This document shows, in pieces, positions 40,304-57,299 of a DNA stretch of 64,000 nt. The number at the start of each line of letters is the position of its first letter. The first letter of the stretch is position 1. The stretch is taken from NCBI RefSeq assembly GCF_030013595.1, contig NZ_CP122769.1, one strand, 5' to 3'. The stretch comes from Escherichia coli (GTDB taxonomy: Bacteria > Pseudomonadota > Gammaproteobacteria > Enterobacterales > Enterobacteriaceae). The notes below the pieces were generated by a model that was given only the letters and a program-made list of their open reading frames with translations, did not search any database and was not told the DNA's origin. Position numbers and translations under genes: made by a program.

Positions 40304-41629
40304 ATGAGCCGGAAACAGCAACGTCTGGTAATTTGGATGAACGGCATCAAAGTCGGGTACTGGGAAAAAAGCAAAGGGGTAGACAGCTTAGAATACCTTC
40401 CTGAATGGGTTGCTGACGAACAGGGAAGGCCGCTGTCATTGTCCCTTCCTTTTACTCCCGGGAACCAGGTCTGGCGTGGAAATGTGGTACGTGACTATTT
40501 TGATAATTTACTGCCGGACAGCGAAGGCATACGCAGACGTCTGGCAATGCGTTACAAGGCCGATAGCCTGGAGCCTTTTGATCTGCTGACGGAGCTGGGA
40601 AAAGACTGCGTGGGCGCGATACAGCTGCTTCATGACGGAGATGAACCCACTGATTTATATTCCGTGAAGTATCACCCGCTTACTGAATCAGAAATTGCGG
40701 CAACTTTGCGTAATACCACGGAGACATTGCTACCGGGCAGGCCAGAAGATAACGACGACTTACGTTTATCTATTGCCGGTGCTCAGGAGAAAACAGCCCT
40801 ACTGTGGCATGAAGATCGGTGGTGTATGCCGGAGGGTAATACACCAACGACGCATATATTCAAGCTACCGCTCGGACTTGTGGGGAACATGAAAGCCGAC
40901 ATGAGCTCGTCGGTTGAAAATGAATGGCTCTGCTCGGTACTTCTCGGCCAGTACGGGCTCCCCGTGGCAAGAACGCAGATTGCTCACTTTGAAGATCAGA
41001 AAGCGCTGGTGGTAGAACGTTTTGACCGAAAATGGTCAGGAGACGGACAATGGATCATTCGTTTACCCCAGGAGGATATGTGTCAGGCCCTGGGCGTTTC
41101 GCCATTACGAAAATATCAGGCGGACGGCGGGCCAGGTATATCGGAAATTATGGAGGTTCTGAGTAATTCAGACCGTGCTGAGCGTGACAAAGCGCAGTTT
41201 TTTATGACGCAGATAATTTTCTGGATGATGGCCGCAACAGATGGCCACGCTAAAAATTTCAGTATTTCTATTGGGCCACAGGGACGTTATCACCTTACAC
41301 CAAACTATGATGTGTTGTCGGCATGGCCGGTGATCGGTCATGGGAACAATCAGATATCCTGGCAGAAGTGCAAACTGGCGATGGCCGTACGTGGCAGTAG
41401 CAACTATTACCAGATATATCGAATACAACGACGCCACTGGATCAGGCATGGTGAGATAACCGGCCTGAGTAAACAGCAGACAGAGGCGATGATAGAGGAA
41501 ATCATCGCCAGAACCCCGGGTGTCATTGAACGTGTTAGCGGGCTTCTTCCGGACCAGTTCCCCCAGCAGCTTGCGGAAAGTATTTTTGATGGAATGAGGC
41601 AGCAATGCAGGCGCCTGGCTGAGAAATGA
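40304..41629 (+). CDS. hipA: HipA-family Ser/Thr kinase toxin
   Basis: 441 aa; motifs SIAGAQEK and DGHAKNFSI. Confidence 0.9.
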   Translation: MSRKQQRLVIWMNGIKVGYWEKSKGVDSLEYLPEWVADEQGRPLSLSLPFTPGNQVWRGNVVRDYFDNLLPDSEGIRRRLAMRYKADSLEPFDLLTELGKDCVGAIQLLHDGDEPTDLYSVKYHPLTESEIAATLRNTTETLLPGRPEDNDDLRLSIAGAQEKTALLWHEDRWCMPEGNTPTTHIFKLPLGLVGNMKADMSSSVENEWLCSVLLGQYGLPVARTQIAHFEDQKALVVERFDRKWSGDGQWIIRLPQEDMCQALGVSPLRKYQADGGPGISEIMEVLSNSDRAERDKAQFFMTQIIFWMMAATDGHAKNFSISIGPQGRYHLTPNYDVLSAWPVIGHGNNQISWQKCKLAMAVRGSSNYYQIYRIQRRHWIRHGEITGLSKQQTEAMIEEIIARTPGVIERVSGLLPDQFPQQLAESIFDGMRQQCRRLAEK

Positions 41630-42420: not shown

Positions 42421-43236
42421 ATGAGAGAGCCAAGACCACGCCATACCTTGCAGGTCATTCGTGTACCTTCTCTGGAGGTTCAGGACCTGGGGCTGACCAG
42501 CTTTGATAGCTGGCTTGACGAGCACGGGTATGACAAAACGAATGCCAGAAATAACCGTACCATCTGGGCGAGAGAAGGCGGATGGCATCTGAAACGTTGC
42601 AGAAATCTTGAAACTGGCACGGACGATTTCTGGTTTATCGCTTTCGATGGTAAAGGCGGGAAGATTTACCCGCTGAAAACCCAAAGAGACTACCGGGCTG
42701 CATATCGTAAGCTGGAAGCAGAAGGTTATGCGCCTGCGGTCATCGAGCAAATGACCACAGGCGCAGCATATAACCTGGCCTATCCACGTTCCACCCTAAA
42801 ACAAGCTGAGACGGCCACCAGCGAGCCAATTCGGAAACCTGACGTAGATATCCAGGGTGAGCACTGCGAGCGCGTAGTGACGCAACGTAGTGGCGTGGCA
42901 CAGGGTAAATTCAAAGCTCTGCTCATCGAGAATTTCGCAGGCCGTTGTGCGGTAACCGGTTGGGTTAATGGAGGTGTCCTGGATGCGGCACACATTGAAC
43001 ATGGAACCCGGTACAATCCGTCTAATGGCATCCTGATGACTCCAACAATGCATGCGCTGTTTGATGCCGATCTTATGGGCATAGATCCGGCCACCCTGAC
43101 CGTTCATTTTAAGCCAGGCATTGAGGTGGGCGAGCTGTTTGAAGGCCGTAAAATCACACCGCTGGTGTACGATCTGGACTTAGAGCGGCTGGCCGTACGC
43201 TGGGCAGAATACCAGGGCCTTGCTCAGGACCAATGA
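42421..43236 (+). CDS. HNH endonuclease-domain protein
   Basis: C-terminal motif FAGRCAVTG..LDAAHI..NGILMTPTMHALFD (HNH_2-type). Confidence 0.7.
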   Translation: MREPRPRHTLQVIRVPSLEVQDLGLTSFDSWLDEHGYDKTNARNNRTIWAREGGWHLKRCRNLETGTDDFWFIAFDGKGGKIYPLKTQRDYRAAYRKLEAEGYAPAVIEQMTTGAAYNLAYPRSTLKQAETATSEPIRKPDVDIQGEHCERVVTQRSGVAQGKFKALLIENFAGRCAVTGWVNGGVLDAAHIEHGTRYNPSNGILMTPTMHALFDADLMGIDPATLTVHFKPGIEVGELFEGRKITPLVYDLDLERLAVRWAEYQGLAQDQ

Positions 43237-43611: not shown

Positions 43612-43667
43612 GGGTGATGATGCCAACTTACTGATTTAGTGTATGATGGTGTTTTTGAGGTGCTCCA

Positions 43668-43943
43668 GTGGCTTCTGTTTCTATCAGCTGTCCCTCCTGT
43701 TCAGCTACTGACGGGGTGGTGCGTAACGGCAAAAGCACCGCCGGACATCAGCGCTATCTCTGCTCTCACTGCCGTAAAACATGGCAACTGCAGTTCACTT
43801 ACACCGCTTCTCAACCCGGTACGCACCAGAAAATCATTGATATGGCCATGAATGGCGTTGGATGCCGGGCAACCGCCCGCATTATGGGCGTTGGCCTCAA
43901 CACGATTTTCCGCCATTTAAAAAACTCAGGCCGCAGTCGGTAA
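43668..43943 (+). CDS. insA: IS1 InsA
   Basis: 91 aa, [23 protein letters not shown]. Confidence 0.95.
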
Positions 43944-44365
43944 CCTCGCGCATACAGCCGGGCAGTGACGTCATCGTCTGCGCGGAAATGGACGAACAGT
44001 GGGGATACGTCGGGGCTAAATCGCGCCAGCGCTGGCTGTTTTACGCGTATGACAGGCTCCGGAAGACGGTTGTTGCGCACGTATTCGGTGAACGCACTAT
44101 GGCGACGCTGGGGCGTCTTATGAGCCTGCTGTCACCCTTTGACGTGGTGATATGGATGACGGATGGCTGGCCGCTGTATGAATCCCGCCTGAAGGGAAAG
44201 CTGCACGTAATCAGCAAGCGATATACGCAGCGAATTGAGCGGCATAACCTGAATCTGAGGCAGCACCTGGCACGGCTGGGACGGAAGTCGCTGTCGTTCT
44301 CAAAATCGGTGGAGCTGCATGACAAAGTCATCGGGCATTATCTGAACATAAAACACTATCAATAA
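43862..44365 (+). CDS. insB: IS1 InsB (expressed as InsAB' by -1 frameshift)
   Basis: 167-aa ORF overlapping insA in the -1 frame. Confidence 0.9.
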
Positions 44366-44523
44366 GTTGGAGTCATTACCGGCAGCATCAACTACATCGC
44401 AAGCAGTAAGAGTAAGTGACGATGCCACAGCAAGACACAATAAAGAAAATCTGTTTTTGAACATATTTGAGACCTTTTATAAAAATAAAATAACAGGAGA
44501 ATTGTATCATTAACAGTCTAGTT

Positions 44524-45189
44524 CTAACGACTACCACTTTTAAGTATGTATTGAGCCAGTTTTATATTCAGGCACACCATATTGCACTCTAGCTCTTTCA
44601 TCATTCTTGAAGAACTCTTAATTAAGTATTCTTCAAGTGGGCCAGCATATGCCCCTGATGTCACGATCGTTAGTTGCGTAAGAGGATGAGTCAAACTCTC
44701 AATGCCCTTCAGGATGTCATTCTGGACAGCAGCAATATAAACAGGCGAAGCCGCAATCAAATATTCATCATTCGGGCTGGACTGCATTAACTGGCTTATA
44801 GTTGCGCAACGGTTATGCTTACCTAGTGATTTTGTGATGGCTTTCCACCAGAGATCATGCCTGAATGGTACTTGATGAAATGTCGCCTCGTAAGAGGGCA
44901 CCCGATCTCGACTATTTAAAAACCCCATCCCGGCAGAGATTATCCACAACTCCAGATTTCTGGTTGAGTTTAAAATTTCCTTTGCCGTAGACCAGTGATT
45001 ACCTGAATACAAGGACAATGCCGGTACCGCCTGATTACTTCTGGCGTCGTCTACAATGTTACTCCAGGCATATGCTGCGTCGTCCGGGGTTTGTTTTGGA
45101 TCTATGTCCAATGTCGGCCAGACGTGGCCCTGATGATTCTTGCCCTTTGTACAGGAAGTGATTAAGTGTACTGAGCGTTCAGAGAACAT
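44524..45189 (-). CDS. hypothetical protein
   Basis: 221-aa ORF, no recognisable motif. Confidence 0.5.
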   Translation of the reverse strand: MFSERSVHLITSCTKGKNHQGHVWPTLDIDPKQTPDDAAYAWSNIVDDARSNQAVPALSLYSGNHWSTAKEILNSTRNLELWIISAGMGFLNSRDRVPSYEATFHQVPFRHDLWWKAITKSLGKHNRCATISQLMQSSPNDEYLIAASPVYIAAVQNDILKGIESLTHPLTQLTIVTSGAYAGPLEEYLIKSSSRMMKELECNMVCLNIKLAQYILKSGSR

Positions 45190-45246
45190 TATCTTCCTTA
45201 CATACCCATAGAACAGCTTTCTAAGAACGGTGGGCTCGCCTGAAAA

Positions 45247-45627
45247 TTACAAATCAGCCCCTTTCACGGCATCATTTTGATTCTTCGCGTCTGCCCCCAG
45301 TAAGATGACCGGTTTTCTGCATGACAGTGTTATTCCTAACAAACGCAACACAAAACCACGCCAGCCAGAGCAAATTTTTTCATTTGCTGCGTAAAGCCTA
45401 TTGTTTTCTCTTTTAAGCTTCGCCCACTCGTTACAGAGGGTAACATCATCAAGCGCTGTTATATGCTTCGCCTCACCTTCGACGATAACGGTATGGATAC
45501 CGTATGCTGTAAATCTCATACTATTTTCCAGAACCCAGTTGCGGTATTCGTCGAGTCCACCTTCGGAACCGGTAGCTCTGCGCCACATTTCAATTTGCTT
45601 GTGTGATGGGTCAAGTGTACTTGTCAT
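45247..45627 (-). CDS. hypothetical protein
   Basis: 126-aa ORF upstream of and co-directional with 44524-45189. Confidence 0.45.
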   Translation of the reverse strand: MTSTLDPSHKQIEMWRRATGSEGGLDEYRNWVLENSMRFTAYGIHTVIVEGEAKHITALDDVTLCNEWAKLKRENNRLYAANEKICSGWRGFVLRLLGITLSCRKPVILLGADAKNQNDAVKGADL

Positions 45628-45895
45628 TGAAGCCTCGTCTCAGCGATAACGCTTGAAATAGCCCGCTTTGGTCATCATGAAATTAGCCATCTGACTGGCG
45701 ATTTGATTGTATCTTACTCATAGTGCCCTACCTATAGGTTAAAAAGGGGCATTTTCGCTTTATAGCGTGTTCAGCAGCATCAATCCTCCCAAGAAAGGCT
45801 GGCTTATTAAGCCGGTCCATCATTTTCTGTATATCTCTCATCAATTTTTATATCCGCCCTGGAGTGCACCGTTCAAGCACACCGATTAGGCAGAT

Positions 45896-45954
45896 AGTCA
45901 CTAGTTAACTCTTTACTAGTGACTAAATTCCATTGATATACGTGACAACGTCAC
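45896..45954. repeat. palindromic elements in intergenic region
   Basis: agtcactagt-taactcttt-actagtgact (10-bp arms) and gtgac-aac-gtcac. Confidence 0.5.
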
Positions 45955-46220
45955 GTCATGAAAGCTTTTAAATGCCTATTTTTCATACAATGGGATTTAA
46001 TTAGGAGTAAATCCCATAGGCTTACATAAGGATGACAATTAAAAGCGTTAAATATCAACCAGATAGAATGATTACCCCCAATTAATGGGCTCATCACATT
46101 ATTTCACTGGCTGGGGTTATTGCTGGCATATCTGAAAGTGCTAATATGTTAGTCATTAGTAATTAGTAAAGCCTTTACTAAACGCGTTTCTACGTAAATT
46201 CTATAGGTTTTATAGGGTCC

Positions 46221-46301
46221 TGTCCGAGGACAATAAAGTTGTACACAAAGCACTAAAGTTGTAACCATTCTCAAAAAACGACGCTAATGTTGTATACTTA
46301 C
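46221..46301 (+). repeat. Tn7-like right-end terminus with TnsB-binding-site-like repeats
   Basis: TGTCCGAG-GACAATAAAGTTGTA... parallels the Tn7R terminus TGTGGGCG-GACAATAAAGTCTTA (from memory); further AAGTTGTA/ATGTTGTA repeats at 46251-46270 and 46282-46301; about 80 bp upstream of tnsA. Confidence 0.55.
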
Positions 46302-46378
46302 TGAATGTGTGGTTATAGGGTTGGAGACTATAAAATGCACATATAGGTACGTATCAATGTCGTTTTTAGGGTACGATC

Positions 46379-47221
46379 ATGGCTAGGGGTAGGCGTCTCA
46401 AATCCTATTTGGATTATGAAAATGCGCTAGGTGACGGCATAGGAGTGGGCTATGGCCAAAGTTATCAGCCCTGGCTTAGAGCTCAGGACGTTAAATCCCG
46501 TGGAAACCGTTCGATAGTCTTTGGCCTTAAGACGTTTCGAAACCATCATCTCCTTTCTTCTGTCGAAAGTAACTTTTTCTATCTGGCTGAGTTTAATGAC
46601 TCGGTGATTGATATCCGGGAACAATTCCCACTCTTTCCTCTCCGGCTTACCCAACAAATAGCAAATCATCTACATTTTCAACATCCTATGGTGAGGGGAG
46701 TAAGAGGAGTACCTGTCGAAGTTCTGAATGTTATGACAACCGATTTTTTACTGACCTTGAGAACTCCTGAAGGCGGACTTCGATACAAAGCTATAGCAGT
46801 AAAACATAACGAGAGCATACCTGAACGCGAAGCCCAAAAACTTGAAATAGAGAGGATGTTTTGGCAGTTGATTGATGTTGAGTTTCAAATTTATGTTGGC
46901 TCGGAACTCAATAACGTCGTCGGTAAAAACATTTGCTGGGCTACTTCTGTATTAAGAGATGGTTCTGAATTTTATGATAAATATCCTCTTGATAAAATCC
47001 TATGGAAGCTTAAACCAGATGTTTATCCCATAGTAGGACTACGTGCAATGATTTCATCAATCTTTGGGGTAGATGCACAAGAAGCGATGATGTTATTGCA
47101 GGCAATGATTGGATTAAAAATGATAAATGTTGATTTATCATATCCAATACTCGAAACCGGTCTGATAAAGATAATTTCCAATGACCACTATATAGGACTG
47201 AACGCAAATGGATATTATTAG
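46379..47221 (+). CDS. tnsA: Tn7-like transposase subunit TnsA
   Basis: 280 aa, position and size; overlaps tnsB start. Confidence 0.75.
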   Translation: MARGRRLKSYLDYENALGDGIGVGYGQSYQPWLRAQDVKSRGNRSIVFGLKTFRNHHLLSSVESNFFYLAEFNDSVIDIREQFPLFPLRLTQQIANHLHFQHPMVRGVRGVPVEVLNVMTTDFLLTLRTPEGGLRYKAIAVKHNESIPEREAQKLEIERMFWQLIDVEFQIYVGSELNNVVGKNICWATSVLRDGSEFYDKYPLDKILWKLKPDVYPIVGLRAMISSIFGVDAQEAMMLLQAMIGLKMINVDLSYPILETGLIKIISNDHYIGLNANGYY

Positions 47222-49331
47222 GAATTCAGTCTGGCTCTCTCAAGGCACTGATTTGCTTGCAGAGGGACTTTACCGTGTTTTGGATTTTGACAGAAAGGTC
47301 GATTTGTTAATTTTGTTTAAAATAAAATCAGAAAGAACGGGTAAGCCAATCCCTTTCTCATTTTCAATGTTTAAATATTATATTGAATCAAATAGCATAA
47401 CTTGTAAAGATTATATATATCCTTCATATATGTTAGTAGATGAGAAAGAATTAACAGATAAAGACAGAGGAAGGCGAGATGAAAATTACAATATCATTAA
47501 AGATCTTGTAGATGACAGAATGTTTCTGTTCGACTATGCATTACATAAAAAGTCGCACCTTTTAATGGATTACTCAAGAAATAAAAAAATATCACAATAT
47601 ACTATCAGAACGCTTCTGGCGTTGTATTGGCGACATGGGCAGGATATTTATGCATTGCTACCCGCATTCTCGAACTGTGGCGCCGCTGGGAAAAGTAGAA
47701 TCAAACATGAAATTAAACTTGGGAATTCCAAAAAAAACAGAGCATTACCTAATGAACGATCACGTGTTTTCATTCTTAATGAAAGAGATATAAATAATAT
47801 TAGAAAATCTCTCATTACGTATCATTATAAAGTTAACGGAGATACGATAAAGAAAACATTAGAGAGACATATTGATTTGTATTTTAGGGATGAAATTAAA
47901 ACAGCAAACCTAGAAAATAGAGCTCCATATGTTCCTTCTTTAAAACAATTTTCATACTGGAATAAAAAACTCTTCACTAAAGATTTCTCGATAAATAAGA
48001 AGAACACGAAAAAAGAAATAGACCTCAAAATGCGGGCGCTTTTAGGTAGTGTGGCTAATACAACTGTTTTGCCGGGTGATGTTTTCGAAATAGACTCAAC
48101 TGTCGCTGATGTACATCTTATTTCGAGTTTAAACAGACGAAAAGTCATTGGGCGTCCTACTATTTATACAGTGGTGGATCGTGCAACAAGAATGATTGTT
48201 GGCCTTCATGTTTCTTTATACCATGCTTCATGGCGAGCCGCCCGACAAGCGTTAGCAAATTGCTTTATGCCAAAAAAAGAATATTGTAGATTATTTGGAA
48301 TCTCTATTACTGATGATGATTGGCCTTGTTCTCACATTCCATTAACATTGATGTGTGACAACGGGGAGATGATTGGTCTTAAACCTCAGGAAGAGATGAC
48401 CCCCCTGACAAAACTTGAGTTTGCGCCAGTCGGTAGAGGCGACAGAAAAAGCATTGTTGAACGCTGTTTCGGCATTCTGAATGATGAGGTTATTCATAGG
48501 CTTATTGGAACAACACGAAGGGGAAAGATTGTTAAAGGAGAGCCAACACCGCAATCCAGGGCTTGTTTAACGATTCAGGAGGTCACGTCTTTACTGATTC
48601 GGGAGATACTTGCACATAATCAGAGAACGTATGAGGAACTGGCTTATATCAATCCCTTACTGATTGAAAATGATCTCGTAATATCACCAAAAAATAGTTG
48701 GATGATAAGCTTAAAGCACGGGAGATTCAGCGCAAGAGCCGTTGGGGCCGACGAAGTGATCGCACGATTGTTAATCCCTGTGAACGCTAACATTACCGCC
48801 GGTGGGATTCAGTACAATAATCTTTTTTATGAATGTGATCCTGAAATTGCATCAGGTGTCAGAGTATTTGGAAGAACCACTTGTGAAGCAAGAATAGATG
48901 ACAATTGCGTAGATTATATATATGTAAGATTTGACAAAAATAGCATTTTCAAAAAACATTACCTACTTAAGAAAAGAGATGTATTTAAAGGGAAAGCTCA
49001 TCTTGATACAGATGTAATGGCTGATTGGGTAGATACTCAAAAAGAAATTAATTTATTTACTCTGGATTCGCTCAGCAATATCAATAATAAAGATGAATTT
49101 AACAGGAAAGGTAACGAAAGATTAAATGAAATATACGAATCTCGCCGGGTACATGGTAAAGATATTAAAAAGAACAGAAAAAATGAACTTGATTCATTAG
49201 GGCGAACTCATGTTGCTAATGGAAGATCTGAACCCCTACTTCCTTCATCCAGTAATGTTCTGCTTTTGCCTGGCCGGGAGGAGAAACAAAGATGGTTAAA
49301 AGGTAAGAAGAAGACTGAGGACGCAGAATAA
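47208..49331 (+). CDS. tnsB: Tn7-like DDE transposase TnsB
   Basis: 707 aa; DDE core region (EIDSTVADV..VVDRATRMIVG..MCDNGEM). Confidence 0.85.
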   Translation: MDIIRNSVWLSQGTDLLAEGLYRVLDFDRKVDLLILFKIKSERTGKPIPFSFSMFKYYIESNSITCKDYIYPSYMLVDEKELTDKDRGRRDENYNIIKDLVDDRMFLFDYALHKKSHLLMDYSRNKKISQYTIRTLLALYWRHGQDIYALLPAFSNCGAAGKSRIKHEIKLGNSKKNRALPNERSRVFILNERDINNIRKSLITYHYKVNGDTIKKTLERHIDLYFRDEIKTANLENRAPYVPSLKQFSYWNKKLFTKDFSINKKNTKKEIDLKMRALLGSVANTTVLPGDVFEIDSTVADVHLISSLNRRKVIGRPTIYTVVDRATRMIVGLHVSLYHASWRAARQALANCFMPKKEYCRLFGISITDDDWPCSHIPLTLMCDNGEMIGLKPQEEMTPLTKLEFAPVGRGDRKSIVERCFGILNDEVIHRLIGTTRRGKIVKGEPTPQSRACLTIQEVTSLLIREILAHNQRTYEELAYINPLLIENDLVISPKNSWMISLKHGRFSARAVGADEVIARLLIPVNANITAGGIQYNNLFYECDPEIASGVRVFGRTTCEARIDDNCVDYIYVRFDKNSIFKKHYLLKKRDVFKGKAHLDTDVMADWVDTQKEINLFTLDSLSNINNKDEFNRKGNERLNEIYESRRVHGKDIKKNRKNELDSLGRTHVANGRSEPLLPSSSNVLLLPGREEKQRWLKGKKKTEDAE

Positions 49332-50779
49332 TGAATCTTATACGGCGCGTTTCAGCGATATATAAAGAACAGGAGTTACCTGAGTATCGTGGCAATCCCT
49401 TAATTGAAGCACTTCCTGAAGCGCTTACGGAAGATGAAGTACTTCTGGAAATGAGTTATTTCCCCGAAATTGACGAAAAAATCCGCTGGACTGCCCCGGC
49501 GAATGTTAGAGAGCAGTATGTCGAACGTATAAAGAAATTCCGTTGCCCTCAAACCAATCTTATCCAGGCTTATAAGATGATCTTACGGGCACTTAGGGAA
49601 AGCTATGCAGCTCGTAATCCTTTAAAAAGCGGAACAATTCAATATCTTCATTACTATGGAAATGAGCGTCCTGATATTGAGCCAGAAAGTGGATATTTTA
49701 AATCCCAGGCTGAAACTATTACGATAGTTGGAATGAGTGGTTCTGGAAAAACTACCATGATTGAGCAAGTCATGGAACATTTCCCTCAGATTATAGAACA
49801 CAGCAGCTATAAAGGAGTTTTTCCCGGCTTCAGTAAGCAAATTGTATGGGTAAAGATTAATTGTCCATACAATTCAAGTGTGAGAGACCTTTGTGAAGAG
49901 ATTTTACAAAAATTAGATGATGCAATTGGTATTGAACGAACTACACCTGAGATTAGAAATGGTGCTCTGGCTCGCCAGATTGCACAAAGAATTAAATCAT
50001 CATTTTTGGGTATCCTTGTTATTGATGAAATGCAGAGGCTTAAATTTTCAAGAACCGGGGGTGAGAGTAAGTTGATTGATTTTTTACATGAAATTGTAGA
50101 TTCCATGGGGGTATCTATGGTTTTTTGTGGAAATCATCCTTTTGACGAGACGCTGACAAAGAAAATGAGAATTGCCAGGCGGGCAGAGTCTGGTGGTTAC
50201 ATGAAAATTAAGAATGTTAGATACGATTCACAAGACTGGCAATCGTTTATTCATTATTTATGGCCATTACAATGGACAAATGTTGAAACTCCATTAAATG
50301 ATGAGTTAAACGAAAAATTATTCATTTTATCTAAAGGCAATATTGGATTGGCTCAGATGATTTATCGGGGGGCACAATTAAAGGTTATCGGTAGCGGCAA
50401 TGAAATCATCACTGGCGCAGTCTTGTCGGCCTCTGTACCGGTACTCGTGAGTCATACGGAGGAATATAAGGATACTCCACTCCCGGGGGCCGCGACTGAA
50501 GATGAGGAAGCTAAATGGCTCTCTGCATCTAATGAGGGTGATGCTTCGGCTAAAATCATGGCAGAGAAGTCCCTAAAGTCTTTGATCCCTGGGGATATAG
50601 ACAGGCCACAGCACAAGGAATTCGTAGGAAAAATAGACGAGGTTTTGCGCAATTTCGACGAGAAAATACTGTCTCTTGACCACGATCTTGTTATCAACAG
50701 AACAGCTGAAAAGAAAAATACCTACGATGCTCTTCAGCGTTGCGGGCTTATAAATATAGATCCACTTAATAAATTGTAA
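49331..50779 (+). CDS. tnsC: Tn7-like AAA+ ATPase TnsC
   Basis: Walker A GMSGSGKTT, Walker B VIDEMQ. Confidence 0.85.
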   Translation: MNLIRRVSAIYKEQELPEYRGNPLIEALPEALTEDEVLLEMSYFPEIDEKIRWTAPANVREQYVERIKKFRCPQTNLIQAYKMILRALRESYAARNPLKSGTIQYLHYYGNERPDIEPESGYFKSQAETITIVGMSGSGKTTMIEQVMEHFPQIIEHSSYKGVFPGFSKQIVWVKINCPYNSSVRDLCEEILQKLDDAIGIERTTPEIRNGALARQIAQRIKSSFLGILVIDEMQRLKFSRTGGESKLIDFLHEIVDSMGVSMVFCGNHPFDETLTKKMRIARRAESGGYMKIKNVRYDSQDWQSFIHYLWPLQWTNVETPLNDELNEKLFILSKGNIGLAQMIYRGAQLKVIGSGNEIITGAVLSASVPVLVSHTEEYKDTPLPGAATEDEEAKWLSASNEGDASAKIMAEKSLKSLIPGDIDRPQHKEFVGKIDEVLRNFDEKILSLDHDLVINRTAEKKNTYDALQRCGLINIDPLNKL

Positions 50780-50819
50780 TGAGGTAACAGTTCGTAACGG
50801 TCAAAGAGAGGTGTGGGAA

Positions 50820-52376
50820 ATGAGAATGTTGCCTGTTTTGCCTGATGAATCCTTGTTCAGCCGGTTTTGTCGGACAACTACCGTGTACGGTATGTCCCCA
50901 TCTTCTCTGTTAACGATCATTTTCAACAAACCTGATATGAACGTCCATCCAATTCTCAATTCAGGATTAAAGGCTATTTCTCTTCATACATCCGAAAGTG
51001 CAGATCAGCTCTGGCATGAACAGACTTTACTCCCTCTTTTTGCCTGGGCACTACCAATCAGTCGTAATGAAATTATGGATTTCAACACGACCCCTGCCAG
51101 GCTTAATCGATTGTGCCGCCTTAGTAATTTTTCACTAGGGCAGCGCACACTATTGAAGTTTTGCCCGGTTTGCGCTCGTGAAGATACTTTTCATTATGGT
51201 GTTACTTATTGGCATCTGGCGCATCAGCTTCATGGGGTTACAACCTGCCATCGGCATCCGGTAGCGCTTGAAAGCATCCATGTCCCTTCTTCACCGCACA
51301 TACGTATTGGACTGATGCCTCCTGTTTCGTATACAGAACAACTTAGCAATGAGATAGACTTCGATTTTGCTAAGTTTTGTTATGAGTCCCTAAATATAAT
51401 CAGAAGAAAAGATATTACACACCCCAATTACATGGATGTACTTAAAAAGTTGAATTTATTATCATTGGATGGAAATTTAAAGAAAAATGTATTCTACGCA
51501 CATGTTTATGCTAAGTGCCAGTTATTTGGGGAGGGTTCATCGGGACTTATACCAACATCCCTAACTGATTATCATTACTGGGAGCCTATACTCAAAGACA
51601 AATGTTGTCAGCATCCCACAAAGCATCTTTTGCTTTGTTATTGTTTGTTAAATACTTGCTGGCCAACGTATGCAGGAAGTCGTACTAATAAAAAGAAAGA
51701 AATCTTTAAAAGTCATAAGAAATACAGTTTTCATATAGTTGAAAATAATACTAGTGTTAGCAACCTTGGGAAGGAATTTAGTCGCAGCAGATGTTACATT
51801 AAAACACTTATTTATAAAAAATACCTGAGGGCGTTTAAGCGAAACACAAAAATTAATATATTCACTGAATTGCTTATCAAGTCTATGGCTGTAAGGGGGT
51901 TTAGTCTGGCATCCATAGCTGAGAAAAACTCATTATCGGAAGGAGCTGTATCCTCTGTAATTTCATCTTGTTACGGTTTATGCTCATGGCGTAAAAAATG
52001 TAAAAAAGATTCTTTAAGACGGCGTCATAAGCAGAAAATATTAAGATTTATACATAATCAATCCGTTTCTATAACACGAAAGTTAGTCAAAGAAAGTTGT
52101 TATGCAAGTTTCTATTGGCTAAATAAACATGAATGTGACTGGCTTAATTCCTGTCTTCCTAAAACAATACGATGCTATAAAAATAAAAGAGTAGACTGGA
52201 GCGAGAGAGATATTATCTCATCATCATTAATAAATGATGTTTTATCTCAGGGGCAGTACTCGATGTCACTTACAAGTCTAGATGCTTTACTGGGAGGGCA
52301 TGGCTGGCTTTTGAAATACAGAGATAAACTACCAATGACAATGATACTTCTCAGAAAAATGGAACTAATTAAATAA
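50820..52376 (+). CDS. tnsD: TnsD/TniQ-family target-selection protein
   Basis: N-terminal LPDESLFSRF and zinc finger CPVC..H..CHRH; ATG 50820 with gagagg RBS. Confidence 0.7.
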   Translation: MRMLPVLPDESLFSRFCRTTTVYGMSPSSLLTIIFNKPDMNVHPILNSGLKAISLHTSESADQLWHEQTLLPLFAWALPISRNEIMDFNTTPARLNRLCRLSNFSLGQRTLLKFCPVCAREDTFHYGVTYWHLAHQLHGVTTCHRHPVALESIHVPSSPHIRIGLMPPVSYTEQLSNEIDFDFAKFCYESLNIIRRKDITHPNYMDVLKKLNLLSLDGNLKKNVFYAHVYAKCQLFGEGSSGLIPTSLTDYHYWEPILKDKCCQHPTKHLLLCYCLLNTCWPTYAGSRTNKKKEIFKSHKKYSFHIVENNTSVSNLGKEFSRSRCYIKTLIYKKYLRAFKRNTKINIFTELLIKSMAVRGFSLASIAEKNSLSEGAVSSVISSCYGLCSWRKKCKKDSLRRRHKQKILRFIHNQSVSITRKLVKESCYASFYWLNKHECDWLNSCLPKTIRCYKNKRVDWSERDIISSSLINDVLSQGQYSMSLTSLDALLGGHGWLLKYRDKLPMTMILLRKMELIK

Positions 52377-52387
52377 GAGGGAGTTAT

Positions 52388-53314
52388 ATGGTTTACGAAA
52401 ATGAATTGTGGCACAGTTTTCTTCTGCGTTCACAGATAATGTATAACTTATCCAATTGCAGGAACATAATATCAAAGCATGGCGCACTAAGGTACGATGC
52501 CTTTCCTCGTTTCGAACTGATTGATATGTACAAATTGCATAGCTTGCAGGATATATATGACATTCTTGCCACTAGAAATGGTTATATACTAACTTCCAAT
52601 ATAGTGTCGTTATCTTCTGGTGTTTACGGGTATTTTAACGCTGTTGAAGATGCCTGTCGGAAAAATTTTCACATAACTAATTCATATCCATTGGTAAACA
52701 TCTCAAACATTCGTTACTGTCACAAATGTATTGTTGAAGATATACACTCTAAAGGCATTGGTTATCTGCGTCATAGATGGTTGTTTGAATCTAAATGTGC
52801 AGTTCATAGTACCAGTTTATATGAGGTTTGTTTTGATAACTATTTGAATGCAGTGAAAGGACTTAGTGACTTAATTATAAGTGGAATAAATCCTCATGGT
52901 TATTGTTCCCTTGTGGTTGACGTTTCAAACCCTTTCAAAAATCCAGTGTATATATTACCATGTGCACGTAATAAAATTTTAAAATGGATTTCGGACAATA
53001 AAAATATGCTGATTTACTTTCTCTTTGATCTCTTCAAATGTAAGTCGCATTCAAGTTTATCTAAGGTTATCGAAGTCAAGATAATGCATGATAGATATAT
53101 TTCTGCGGTGTTCAAGATGTTAAGTGAAGTTAATTTTTGTAATTTCAACTCATTTATTTCTGATATTTTTGAGGACGTAAGTTATGCCTCTATCGGACTT
53201 GATGATTATTCTGTTAATGTGCATTTTCTCAGGCTAAGGGCTGCAGATTGTAAATTTTGCCAGTTGAATGGTAAATATTTTTGCTCACTTTACAATGTAA
53301 AATTTCTTCGCTAA
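52388..53314 (+). CDS. second TniQ-like protein (short)
   Basis: N-terminal ENELWHSFLLRS and C-x2-C-x22-C-x2-H motif (CHKC...CAVH). Confidence 0.5.
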   Translation: MVYENELWHSFLLRSQIMYNLSNCRNIISKHGALRYDAFPRFELIDMYKLHSLQDIYDILATRNGYILTSNIVSLSSGVYGYFNAVEDACRKNFHITNSYPLVNISNIRYCHKCIVEDIHSKGIGYLRHRWLFESKCAVHSTSLYEVCFDNYLNAVKGLSDLIISGINPHGYCSLVVDVSNPFKNPVYILPCARNKILKWISDNKNMLIYFLFDLFKCKSHSSLSKVIEVKIMHDRYISAVFKMLSEVNFCNFNSFISDIFEDVSYASIGLDDYSVNVHFLRLRAADCKFCQLNGKYFCSLYNVKFLR

Positions 53315-53629: not shown

Positions 53630-53666
53630 GTTATGCTTGTTAACTCGTCGATACGGAAGGTCACTT

Positions 53667-53966
53667 ATGAACACTCAATACGCTTTGAAGACTTTGAATC
53701 AGTTACGTCCTGTTTTAATCGGCTTTCGCAAAGCCAATGGACTGACGCAAAAAGATGTTTCTGAACGTTTGGGTATAACACAGCAAACTTATGCCCGACT
53801 AGAGGCCAACCCTGCAAGTGCGGGTTTTGAGCGTTTGTTTAGGGTGTTCAGCGTCCTTGGAGTGGAGATCGTACTTTCATCCAGGGAACCATTGTCAGAT
53901 GCAAAGCCCGAATACGGAGCTATGCACAATTATTCTTCACTTCCAGCCAGGCGGGAGAAATGGTGA
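53667..53966 (+). CDS. HipB-like HTH regulator (orphan paralogue, no adjacent hipA)
   Basis: MNTQYALKTLNQLRPVLIGFRKANGLTQKDVSERLGITQQTYARLE closely parallels hipB at 40003. Confidence 0.75.
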   Translation: MNTQYALKTLNQLRPVLIGFRKANGLTQKDVSERLGITQQTYARLEANPASAGFERLFRVFSVLGVEIVLSSREPLSDAKPEYGAMHNYSSLPARREKW

Positions 53967-56355: not shown

Positions 56356-56453
56356 TGTATTAAATAAGCATCTCAGGTGCATATATTCCGGTCCTCAACA
56401 AAGGACCGGAGTACAGAGTAGTAAAAACCCGAAATTAAGGTAATGACTCCAAC

Positions 56454-56957
56454 TTATTGATAGTGTTTTATGTTCAGATAATGCCCGATGACTTTGTCAT
56501 GCAGCTCCACCGATTTTGAGAACGACAGCGACTTCCGTCCCAGCCGTGCCAGGTGCTGCCTCAGATTCAGGTTATGCCGCTCAATTCGCTGCGTATATCG
56601 CTTGCTGATTACGTGCAGCTTTCCCTTCAGGCGGGATTCATACAGCGGCCAGCCATCCGTCATCCATATCACCACGTCAAAGGGTGACAGCAGGCTCATA
56701 AGACGCCCCAGCGTCGCCATAGTGCGTTCACCGAATACGTGCGCAACAACCGTCTTCCGGAGCCTGTCATACGCGTAAAACAGCCAGCGCTGGCGCGATT
56801 TAGCCCCGACATAGCCCCACTGTTCGTCCATTTCCGCGCAGACGATGACGTCACTGCCCGGCTGTATGCGCGAGGTTACCGACTGCGGCCTGAGTTTTTT
56901 AAGTGACGTAAAATCGTGTTGAGGCCAACGCCCATAATGCGGGCGGTTGCCCGGCAT
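56454..56957 (-). CDS. insB: IS1 InsB
   Basis: Near-identical to copy 1 InsB. Confidence 0.9.
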
Positions 56958-57151
56958 CCAACGCCATTCATGGCCATATCAATGATTTTCTGGTGCGTAC
57001 CGGGTTGAGAAGCGGTGTAAGTGAACTGCAGTTGCCATGTTTTACGGCAGTGAGAGCAGAGATAGCGCTGATGTCCGGCGGTGCTTTTGCCGTTACGCAC
57101 CACCCCGTCAGTAGCTGAACAGGAGGGACAGCTGATAGAAACAGAAGCCAC
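56876..57151 (-). CDS. insA: IS1 InsA
   Basis: Near-identical to copy 1 InsA (one substitution F to L). Confidence 0.95.
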
Positions 57152-57299
57152 TGGAGCACCTCAAAAACACCATCATACACTAAATCAGTAAGTTGGCAGC
57201 ATCACCGAAATTAATCGGGTTTGAATTGTATAAAGATTAACCGACTCCCGCGCCCAGGAACGATGTAAAATCACGCTTGTCGTGACATTTCTACAATGT

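Follow-up and report, generated by a model that had tools for sequence, protein, structure and literature searches.

In a 64,000-bp stretch of Escherichia coli contig NZ_CP122769.1 (assembly GCF_030013595.1; hereafter the window), a Tn7-like sil/pco transposon of the Tn6230 family lies beside two minus-strand open reading frames (ORFs) for hypothetical proteins of 126 and 221 amino acids (aa). The likely explanation of this locus is that it consists of plasmid backbone genes, a spacer of putative operators and a plasmid attachment site of the transposon that is marked by one conserved palindromic block, referred to as block D. Both ORFs are ordinary genes of the IncHI2 backbone, one of them with an informative family assignment, and it is the targeting result that merits follow-up.

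The region around both ORFs is IncHI2 plasmid backbone, and positions 44400–46350 are 99–100% identical to many E. coli plasmids of 200–290 kb. The reference plasmid used here, pEC244_1 (199.7 kb), carries repHI2, the ter cluster and the trh/htd transfer genes. The region is bounded on the left by a deletion mediated by the insertion sequence IS1 (43613–44380) and on the right by the Tn6230-family element (from 46221), in agreement with the first-pass annotation, which had placed the two ORFs between IS1 and a Tn7-like right end.

Insertion of Tn6230-family elements beside block D

Insertion sites of related Tn7-like elements were compared, as the first-pass annotation had proposed. Relative to an empty-site plasmid, the element in the window is inserted 49 bp upstream of the start codon of a DUF4942 gene, and its 5-bp duplication GGTCC has also been reported for the IncHI2 insertion by Fang et al. 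2016 (PMC4855149). In IncHI2A, the R478-type Tn6230, which has diverged ends (TGTCCGAAG...), is inserted 3 bp further on and is flanked by the duplication CCTAC. In the IncHI1A plasmid p1902-MDR, a window-type element occupies the homologous place with the duplication GGTGG, as checked against the empty pHCM1 site, and an IncHI1B plasmid carries an R478-type variant at the same IncHI1 position as in p1902-MDR.

The right end faces block D in every case, and the first transposon base is 47–52 bp from the centre of the palindrome. Relative to this conserved block, the insertions in IncHI2, IncHI2A and IncHI1 lie within 5 bp of each other. The sole contiguous core near the insertion that is conserved between IncHI2 and IncHI1 is on the right-end side (TCATTAGTnATTAGTAAAGnCnTTACTA). 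The comparison indicates that Tn6230-family elements have hit the site independently at least three, and probably four, times. Separate duplications, one orientation and a fixed spacing in diverged backbones are the signature of site-specific targeting, and block D is the proposed recognition determinant. The right end was found on 599 plasmids of PLSDB, with an IncHI2-type junction in 549 and an IncHI1-type junction in 51, which leaves approximately none for other positions; these counts are approximate, as an 80%-coverage criterion was applied and the junctions themselves were sampled.

A scar is present at the same attachment position in plasmid pFL4V14 (extract L013, 5001–5043), in which the Tn3-family transposon TnAs1 interrupts the right end of Tn6230 after 43 bp.

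The first-pass annotation had suggested that the locus of the two ORFs may be the attachment site recognised by TniQ-family proteins. This is supported for the non-coding block D, beside which the independent insertions in one orientation occurred, and not for the ORFs. The suggestion had been rejected early in the analysis, given that the chromosomal site of the element is yhiN and that the flanks are unrelated, and the junctions in diverged backbones overturned that rejection. For IncHI2 plasmids, the transposon has already been published together with its ends and duplications (PMC4855149); the R478 copy is the prototype Tn6230, and its location has been listed as an insertion hotspot (PMC13049778).

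The same element was found at 697 places in E. coli chromosomes; with one exception, the chromosomal rows that were sampled place it within the final codons of yhiN, and transposition from pMG101 to the yhiN site has been observed in the laboratory (PMC8417528). The yhiN and plasmid flanks are unrelated: they share 15 of 60 positions (25%) in register, and 25 of 60 at the best match anywhere in the spacer between the transposon and the 126-aa ORF. This implies a separate recognition mode for the plasmid site.

Two further genes follow tnsABCD (Table 1), and the encoded 308-aa TniQ-like and 109-aa helix-turn-helix (HTH) proteins are candidate parts of a second targeting pathway. The element would then have two sequence-specific homing pathways, one for yhiN, served by TnsD, and one for the IncHI site. 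The latter may be served by the small TniQ-like protein, which could act jointly with the neighbouring HTH protein or recognise a plasmid regulator that occupies block D.

Alternatively, TnsD itself might recognise the IncHI site as well as yhiN, in which case the genes for the small TniQ-like and HTH proteins would be irrelevant cargo. Among the candidate selectors, TnsD alone has a confident domain assignment, and a 2024 review gives yhiN as the Tn6230 target with the molecular details of targeting unknown (PMC11406308). However, the low similarity of the two flanks argues against a common target, and the presence of both TniQ and TnsD in an element is usually interpreted as a sign of two distinct pathways (PMC10293859). 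Recognition of both sites by TnsD is thus considered unlikely.

The geometry of the IncHI site is that of known Tn7-like attachment sites. Tn7-like selectors contact their target on the side of the right end, a few tens of bp away from the insertion, and the plasmid site shares with attTn7 (glmS), recognised by TnsD, and with the yhiN site a single orientation, the right end beside the recognised side, 5-bp duplications, and a fixed distance (47–52 bp here) from a conserved sequence with small positional scatter. In contrast to both, the plasmid target is a non-coding palindromic block rather than the 3' end of a conserved chromosomal gene, and its flank has no sequence similarity to the yhiN site. 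Homing of a Tn7-like element onto plasmids is shared with the Tn5053-family 'res-site hunters' and with the TnsE pathway of Tn7. The TniQ protein of Tn5053 locates a particular cis-site on plasmids at which its cognate protein is bound (PMC11406308), and a palindromic, operator-like IncHI target would be analogous to that site. However, the targets of Tn5053 are resolvase res sites, and those of TnsE are replication structures, chosen irrespective of sequence, whereas the target here is a specific block in the IncHI DUF4942/DUF6884 spacer, and the element also keeps a chromosomal site.

Table 1. Positions of features at the locus in the 64,000-bp window.
Feature	Coordinates	Strand	Details
IS1 copy	43613–44380	+	From BLAST of pEC244_1 and the 180-PT54 plasmid against the window; insA/insB ORFs
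Lipoprotein-gene remnant	44381–44464	−	First 28 codons: signal peptide and lipobox LTAC; rest removed by IS1
221-aa ORF	44524–45189	−	RefSeq hypothetical protein WP_000490638.1
126-aa ORF	45247–45627	−	RefSeq hypothetical protein WP_001426317.1
Spacer	45628–46220		593 bp; 39% GC (A+T-rich), densely palindromic
Palindrome A	45895–45925		11-bp perfect arms TAGTCACTAGT (45895–45905) and ACTAGTGACTA (45915–45925), 9-bp spacer
Palindrome B	45940–45956		ACGTGAC-aac-GTCACGT, 7-bp arms
Palindrome C	45990–46017		ATGGGATTTA N8 TAAATCCCAT, 10-bp arms
Block D	46150–46181		TAGTCATTAGTAATTAGTAAAG C CTTTACTAA; perfect palindrome 46163–46181, 9-bp arms
Target-site duplication GGTCC	46216–46220		Second copy at left end on pEC244_1; single copy in empty site
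Right (tnsA-proximal) end of Tn6230-family sil/pco transposon	46221–46335	+	Starts TGTCCGAGGACAATAAAGTTGT... (TGTCCGAGG...)
Three direct repeats in right end	46229–46246, 46249–46266, 46280–46297		Position expected for TnsB-binding sites
tnsA	46379–47221	+	
tnsB	47208–49331	+	
tnsC	49331–50779	+	
tnsD	50811–52376	+	TniQ and TnsD domains
Second, weak TniQ-like gene	52388–53314	+	308 aa; sub-threshold TniQ match
Xre-type HTH gene	53637–53966	+	109 aa

The cargo of the transposon includes another copy of IS1 (56439–57207); in pEC244_1, an IS1 instead interrupts tnsC.

Putative operators in the palindromic spacer

In an uninterrupted plasmid, the spacer separates the cluster that begins with the 126-aa gene from a divergently oriented operon of the DUF4942 gene, which is now beyond the transposon. 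The first-pass annotation had noted, at 45896–45954, an inverted repeat with 10-bp arms and a second short palindrome. Both are real, with 11-bp arms in the first (palindrome A) and with the second (palindrome B) at 45940–45956, and two more, at 45990–46017 and 46163–46181, had been missed. Three distinct perfect inverted repeats with arms of at least 9 bp were observed, as compared with a mean of 0.04 in 1000 dinucleotide shuffles of 45628–46220, and a maximum arm of at least 11 bp was reached in 0.2% of these shuffles.

Palindrome A contains a motif, CTTTACTAGTGACTAA, that is common to block D. In its 16-bp form, CTTTACTARTNACTAA, the shared motif occurs exactly twice in the window, once in A (45911–45926, plus strand) and once in D (46156–46171, minus strand), the copies being 245 bp apart in inverted orientation.

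The four blocks are 71–93% identical between IncHI2 and IncHI1-type plasmids, as compared with 43–50% for the rest of the spacer, and the DUF6884 proteins (the family of the 221-aa product, see below) of the compared IncHI1-type plasmids are only ~58% identical to that of the window. Palindrome C is the best conserved block (93%), and the GTGAC/GTCAC arms of palindrome B are invariant in all five aligned plasmids. Footprint conservation in this comparison lends support to the candidate operator of the first-pass annotation. The spacer would serve as a shared control region of two divergent gene clusters, with the four conserved palindromes as putative protein-binding operators and palindrome A as a candidate operator for the 126-aa-led cluster.

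The palindromes could instead act as single-stranded DNA or RNA structures, such as a single-strand initiation site, a promoter on the single-stranded DNA of conjugation, a structured leader or a small RNA. As a single strand, 45880–46220 (341 nt) folds better than its shuffles on both strands (z-scores of −6.65 and −5.36), the stems are kept while the hairpin loops vary, and one stem change, A-T to G-T, is compatible with a wobble pair. However, a compensatory change was found in none of the pairs, Rfam covariance models gave no match at E≤1 in 45500–46400, and the arm sequence itself is conserved, beyond mere pairing. Furthermore, the inverted placement of the 16-bp motif in A and D, 245 bp apart, is that expected for the sites of one DNA-binding protein, and the locus is ~50 kb from the relaxase region of pEC244_1. 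A role as folded strands in place of duplex operators is judged unlikely. An extended conserved hairpin around palindrome C was also considered and was rejected, as RNAalifold kept only two invariant hairpins with no covariation.

The sole sigma-70-like match in the region (CGGACA N17 TAGAAT; 46198–46226, minus strand) spans the boundary of the transposon end with its flank. On the strength of this consensus match, the insertion would have created a hybrid promoter that reads outward.

The IncHI2 spacer occurs as two alleles, one at least 99% identical to that of the window (659 PLSDB records) and one ~87% identical (442 records). Plasmid pFL4V14 has 126-aa and 221-aa genes almost identical to those of the window despite the divergence of its spacer. 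The contrast between spacer and genes suggests recombination breakpoints at the gene/spacer border.

Two genes of a conjugative-plasmid backbone

Both minus-strand ORFs predicted in the first pass are annotated in RefSeq and have intact frames. As pFL4V14 carries nearly identical genes and is uninformative for the ratio of non-synonymous to synonymous substitution rates (dN/dS), a ~90%-identical variant from a metagenome contig was used. The 221-aa gene has 12 synonymous and 7 non-synonymous changes and a ratio of 0.155; for the 126-aa gene, with 12 and 15 such changes, respectively, the ratio is 0.32. These values, with the frames kept in the variant, indicate that both ORFs are under purifying selection.

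The two genes, separated by 57 bp, are the head of a longer same-strand backbone cluster that was shortened by IS1. In intact plasmids the order is 126 aa, 221 aa, a 151-aa lipoprotein, 78 aa, 97 aa and an hns paralogue, with gaps of 25–177 bp. The two-gene operon of the first pass is thus correct as to adjacent genes on one strand, but the cluster continues as far as the hns paralogue where IS1 has not cut it. The lipoprotein gene, third in the cluster, was cut by IS1 after codon 28. IS1 stands in place of ~7.8 kb of IncHI2 backbone, as compared with pEC244_1 (extract L001, 4173–11981), so that the window plasmid is without that hns copy.

Also lost with this segment were an HNH gene and a gene for a UvrD-type helicase (PADLOC model GajB, E 1e-51) with a 284-aa partner. 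To the left of IS1, the window has genes for a HipA-family toxin and for a 271-aa protein with an HNH_2 endonuclease domain (40304–41629 and 42421–43236), and in the reference plasmid an HTH partner gene lies upstream of the HipA-family gene.

Homology and structure searches, suggested as a check in the first pass, gave an assignment for the 221-aa protein, which had been described as having no recognisable domains. This description is wrong for it: the protein matches Pfam family DUF6884 (PF21818; E 5e-7, 30.4 bits against a cut-off of 30) and seven PADLOC models of DpdC, the best at E 4e-59 over model positions 3–233 of 319. In the Dpd system, DUF6884 is represented by DpdC (bioRxiv 10.1101/2025.02.24.639861), which converts preQ0 in DNA to the amide ADG in vitro, independently of DpdA/B (PMC10164549). 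The CxxxK and LSAxxG motifs highlighted by the Pfam curators for DUF6884 (PMC11701544) are represented in the 221-aa protein by C13-T-K-G-K17 and, for SAxxG, by I84-S-A-G-M-G89. Both CxxxK and SAxxG are invariant across the plasmid homologues and three DpdC proteins linked to DpdA and DpdB.

These three proteins come from a genome scan that found bona fide dpdC-dpdA-dpdB operons in Tolumonas, Rheinheimera and Geomonas, confirmed by PADLOC with DpdA and DpdB at E<1e-110. Over the whole length, the 221-aa protein is 35, 27 and 21% identical to their respective DpdC proteins, and in a neighbour-joining tree the plasmid clade is sister to Tolumonas DpdC. The top PADLOC model of the 221-aa protein is also the top model for the Tolumonas and Rheinheimera proteins. 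In comparison with DpdC of the Dpd system of Salmonella Montevideo, the plasmid protein is alike in the DUF6884 core, the invariant CxxxK, and the WxxSAGxG and Y-x-x-T positions. However, it has 221 aa as compared with 312–326 aa, being without the C-terminal domain of ~90 aa and an insertion of ~10 aa, and its gene sits on conjugative plasmids, unlinked to dpdA/dpdB and to preQ0 synthesis genes, the plasmid homologues examined lying near hns, staphylococcal nuclease (SNase) genes or umuDC. No dpdA or dpdB is annotated anywhere on pEC244_1, and none was found in the contexts of the other plasmid homologues examined; the three operons served as positive controls of the linkage search. The protein thus has neither the full-length architecture of DpdC proper (~310–325 aa) nor linkage to dpdA/dpdB, and its sequence identifies it as a shortened, stand-alone (orphan) homologue of DpdC. 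It is only 13% identical to YaaA (PDB 5CAJ), which together with Bacillus subtilis YfjM is among the other DUF6884 members or relatives, and it has no sequence-level match in the PDB; nothing in the analysis pointed to a function in oxidative stress or repair.

By analogy with DpdC, the 221-aa product would bind DNA, flip out a base and act on it through Cys13, the likeliest substrate being a 7-deazaguanine-type or damaged base. It would work independently of DpdA/B, given that the reference plasmid has no annotated gene for either.

Homologues were found by tblastn on 2,990 of 72,556 PLSDB plasmids, 85% of which are predicted to be conjugative; they include IncHI1 plasmids, the IncL/M plasmid pOXA-48 and Klebsiella MOBH plasmids. 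The neighbours of the DUF6884 gene vary by plasmid, with SNase genes, umuDC and hns recurring. In IncFII-type plasmids, it abuts or overlaps by 4 bp a gene of the staphylococcal-nuclease family (L003 8001–9172; L006 1105–2332; L037 8184–9328), and the overlap suggests translational coupling. The umuDC genes adjoin it in pOXA-48 and three other loci. In IncHI1-type plasmids, a gene for a 523-aa protein with a TnsA-like N-terminal endonuclease domain and a sigma-70 region-4 domain lies a few kb away (L007 9135–10706). A conserved partner of DUF6884 was sought among the ~400-aa neighbours in IncHI2, IncFII-type and pOXA-48 plasmids and was rejected, as these are mutually non-homologous. A 214-aa gene that follows one member of the 126-aa family was considered as a DUF6884 gene and proved not to be one.

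The 126-aa product belongs, on the evidence of its relatives, to an uncurated small-protein family of conjugative plasmids. Curated libraries, including Pfam and PHROG, gave no match. An exhaustive phmmer search returned 78 cluster representatives at E<1e-3, most of which have 70–100 aa and align to residues ~37–105, their start Met corresponding to M37. The consensus of the family core is GINTVxIxGEVKHITxLD...GWRGxxLRLxGV, in which GWRG and LxLxG are nearly invariant. The AF2 model shows a β-hairpin followed by a long helix (predicted local distance difference test score, pLDDT, 78.6), and no fold match to it was found. The core is present on 3,398 PLSDB plasmids, 87% of them predicted to be conjugative.

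In five contexts examined, members of the family are near hns, hha or kfrA: directly after hns; two genes downstream of an hha-domain gene, the cluster also including a gene for a DNA-binding protein; directly after kfrA; fused to a Hha N-terminus in one chimera (P0069); and, in the window lineage, ~2 kb upstream of hns. These settings weakly point to a nucleoid-associated or regulatory accessory role.

The first-pass annotation had also offered a small defence or addiction module as the function of the pair, and the two ORFs might be such a self-contained unit, either a toxin-antitoxin pair or a small anti-phage system. They are same-strand neighbours with a 57-bp gap and a palindromic upstream region; the 221-aa protein matches defence-database models, DpdC and, weakly, candidate PDC-M57A; and the 4-bp DUF6884/SNase overlap in IncFII-type plasmids would fit a modification-dependent nuclease pair. 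However, the gene pair is not conserved across plasmids. The DUF6884 gene occurs without the 126-aa gene in IncHI1-type plasmids (at the same position), pOXA-48, IncFII-type and Klebsiella MOBH plasmids, and the 126-aa family is also found without DUF6884. Each gene thus occurs alone and the pair is not obligate, which argues against a toxin-antitoxin or two-component defence system. In addition, neither ORF matched a toxin-antitoxin family or an NCBIfam model, and library scans of the ORFs revealed no complete defence-system signature; DpdA, DpdB and DpdD–K are absent, and the ~400-aa neighbours in different plasmids are mutually unrelated. A module of this kind is very unlikely.

The proposed attachment site weighed, and its implications

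It is highly improbable that the position is untargeted, that is, one old insertion or a permissive hotspot spread by descent and homologous recombination among IncHI plasmids: although most of the ~600 plasmid copies clearly come from few events, IncHI2 is mosaic at the locus (spacer alleles 87% identical, adjacent genes ~100%) and a 2026 survey lists orf159-orf819 simply among 18 'insertion hotspots' (PMC13049778), near-identical elements stand in very diverged flanks, in the same orientation throughout, with three different duplications and points (GGTCC, CCTAC at +3, and GGTGG in a backbone with a ~60%-identical flank), the PLSDB counts (599 against 549 + 51) leave approximately no plasmid copies for other sites, and chance alone would almost never put three events within 6 bp on a plasmid of ~200 kb.

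Several points weigh against the explanation favoured here, which combines backbone genes, putative operators and a plasmid attachment site marked by block D. Each of its steps comes from computation. Many of the ~599 plasmid copies descend from the same few insertion events, block D was identified as the presumed recognised sequence by its spacing and conservation, and the second TniQ match is under the Pfam cut-off (20.9 as compared with 27 bits). In the spacer, the palindrome arms are invariant, which leaves no covariation to separate protein binding from hairpin formation, and the single strand folds unusually well; a consensus promoter scan, which found fewer sites than it does in shuffles, gave no sigma-70 site beside palindrome A. 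The biochemical role suggested for the 221-aa protein is extrapolated from DpdC despite the absent C-terminal domain, and an obvious source of preQ0-containing DNA is lacking.

Two functional proposals are put forward tentatively. In the first, a dedicated IncHI-homing pathway, the small TniQ-like protein, together with the HTH protein or through a plasmid regulator bound at the site, would read block D and direct insertion ~50 bp away. In the second, which is separate, the orphan DpdC homologue would have a function for the plasmid. The short orphan DpdC clade, present on ~3,000 conjugative plasmids, may act in plasmid establishment or in an anti-phage role on DNA with 7-deazaguanine-modified or damaged bases.

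In the searchable literature, no statement of a second, sequence-specific attachment site on IncHI plasmids was found; likewise, neither the short, stand-alone DpdC clade nor the 126-aa family was found to have been described there. Two widespread 'hypothetical' plasmid genes, each on ~4–5% of PLSDB plasmids, are now placed in families. A truncated DpdC homologue unlinked to DpdA/B raises the question of DNA base chemistry carried by conjugative plasmids.

Among the major carriers of multidrug, colistin (mcr-9) and metal resistance are the IncHI2 and IncHI1 plasmids, and much of this cargo resides in Tn6230-family elements, which carry sil/pco and, in relatives, mcr-9. Targeting to block D would explain the constant position of the transposon in IncHI plasmids. 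With a candidate plasmid target of ~30 bp, a predicted spacing and two candidate selectors, the proposed second pathway would be directly testable. If it exists, it would be a natural protein-guided, sequence-specific plasmid-homing Tn7 system, in which block D would mark a second attachment site distinct from yhiN, and a Tn7-like family without TnsE and CRISPR would thereby have the 'mobile-plasmid pathway' that it has so far been missing.

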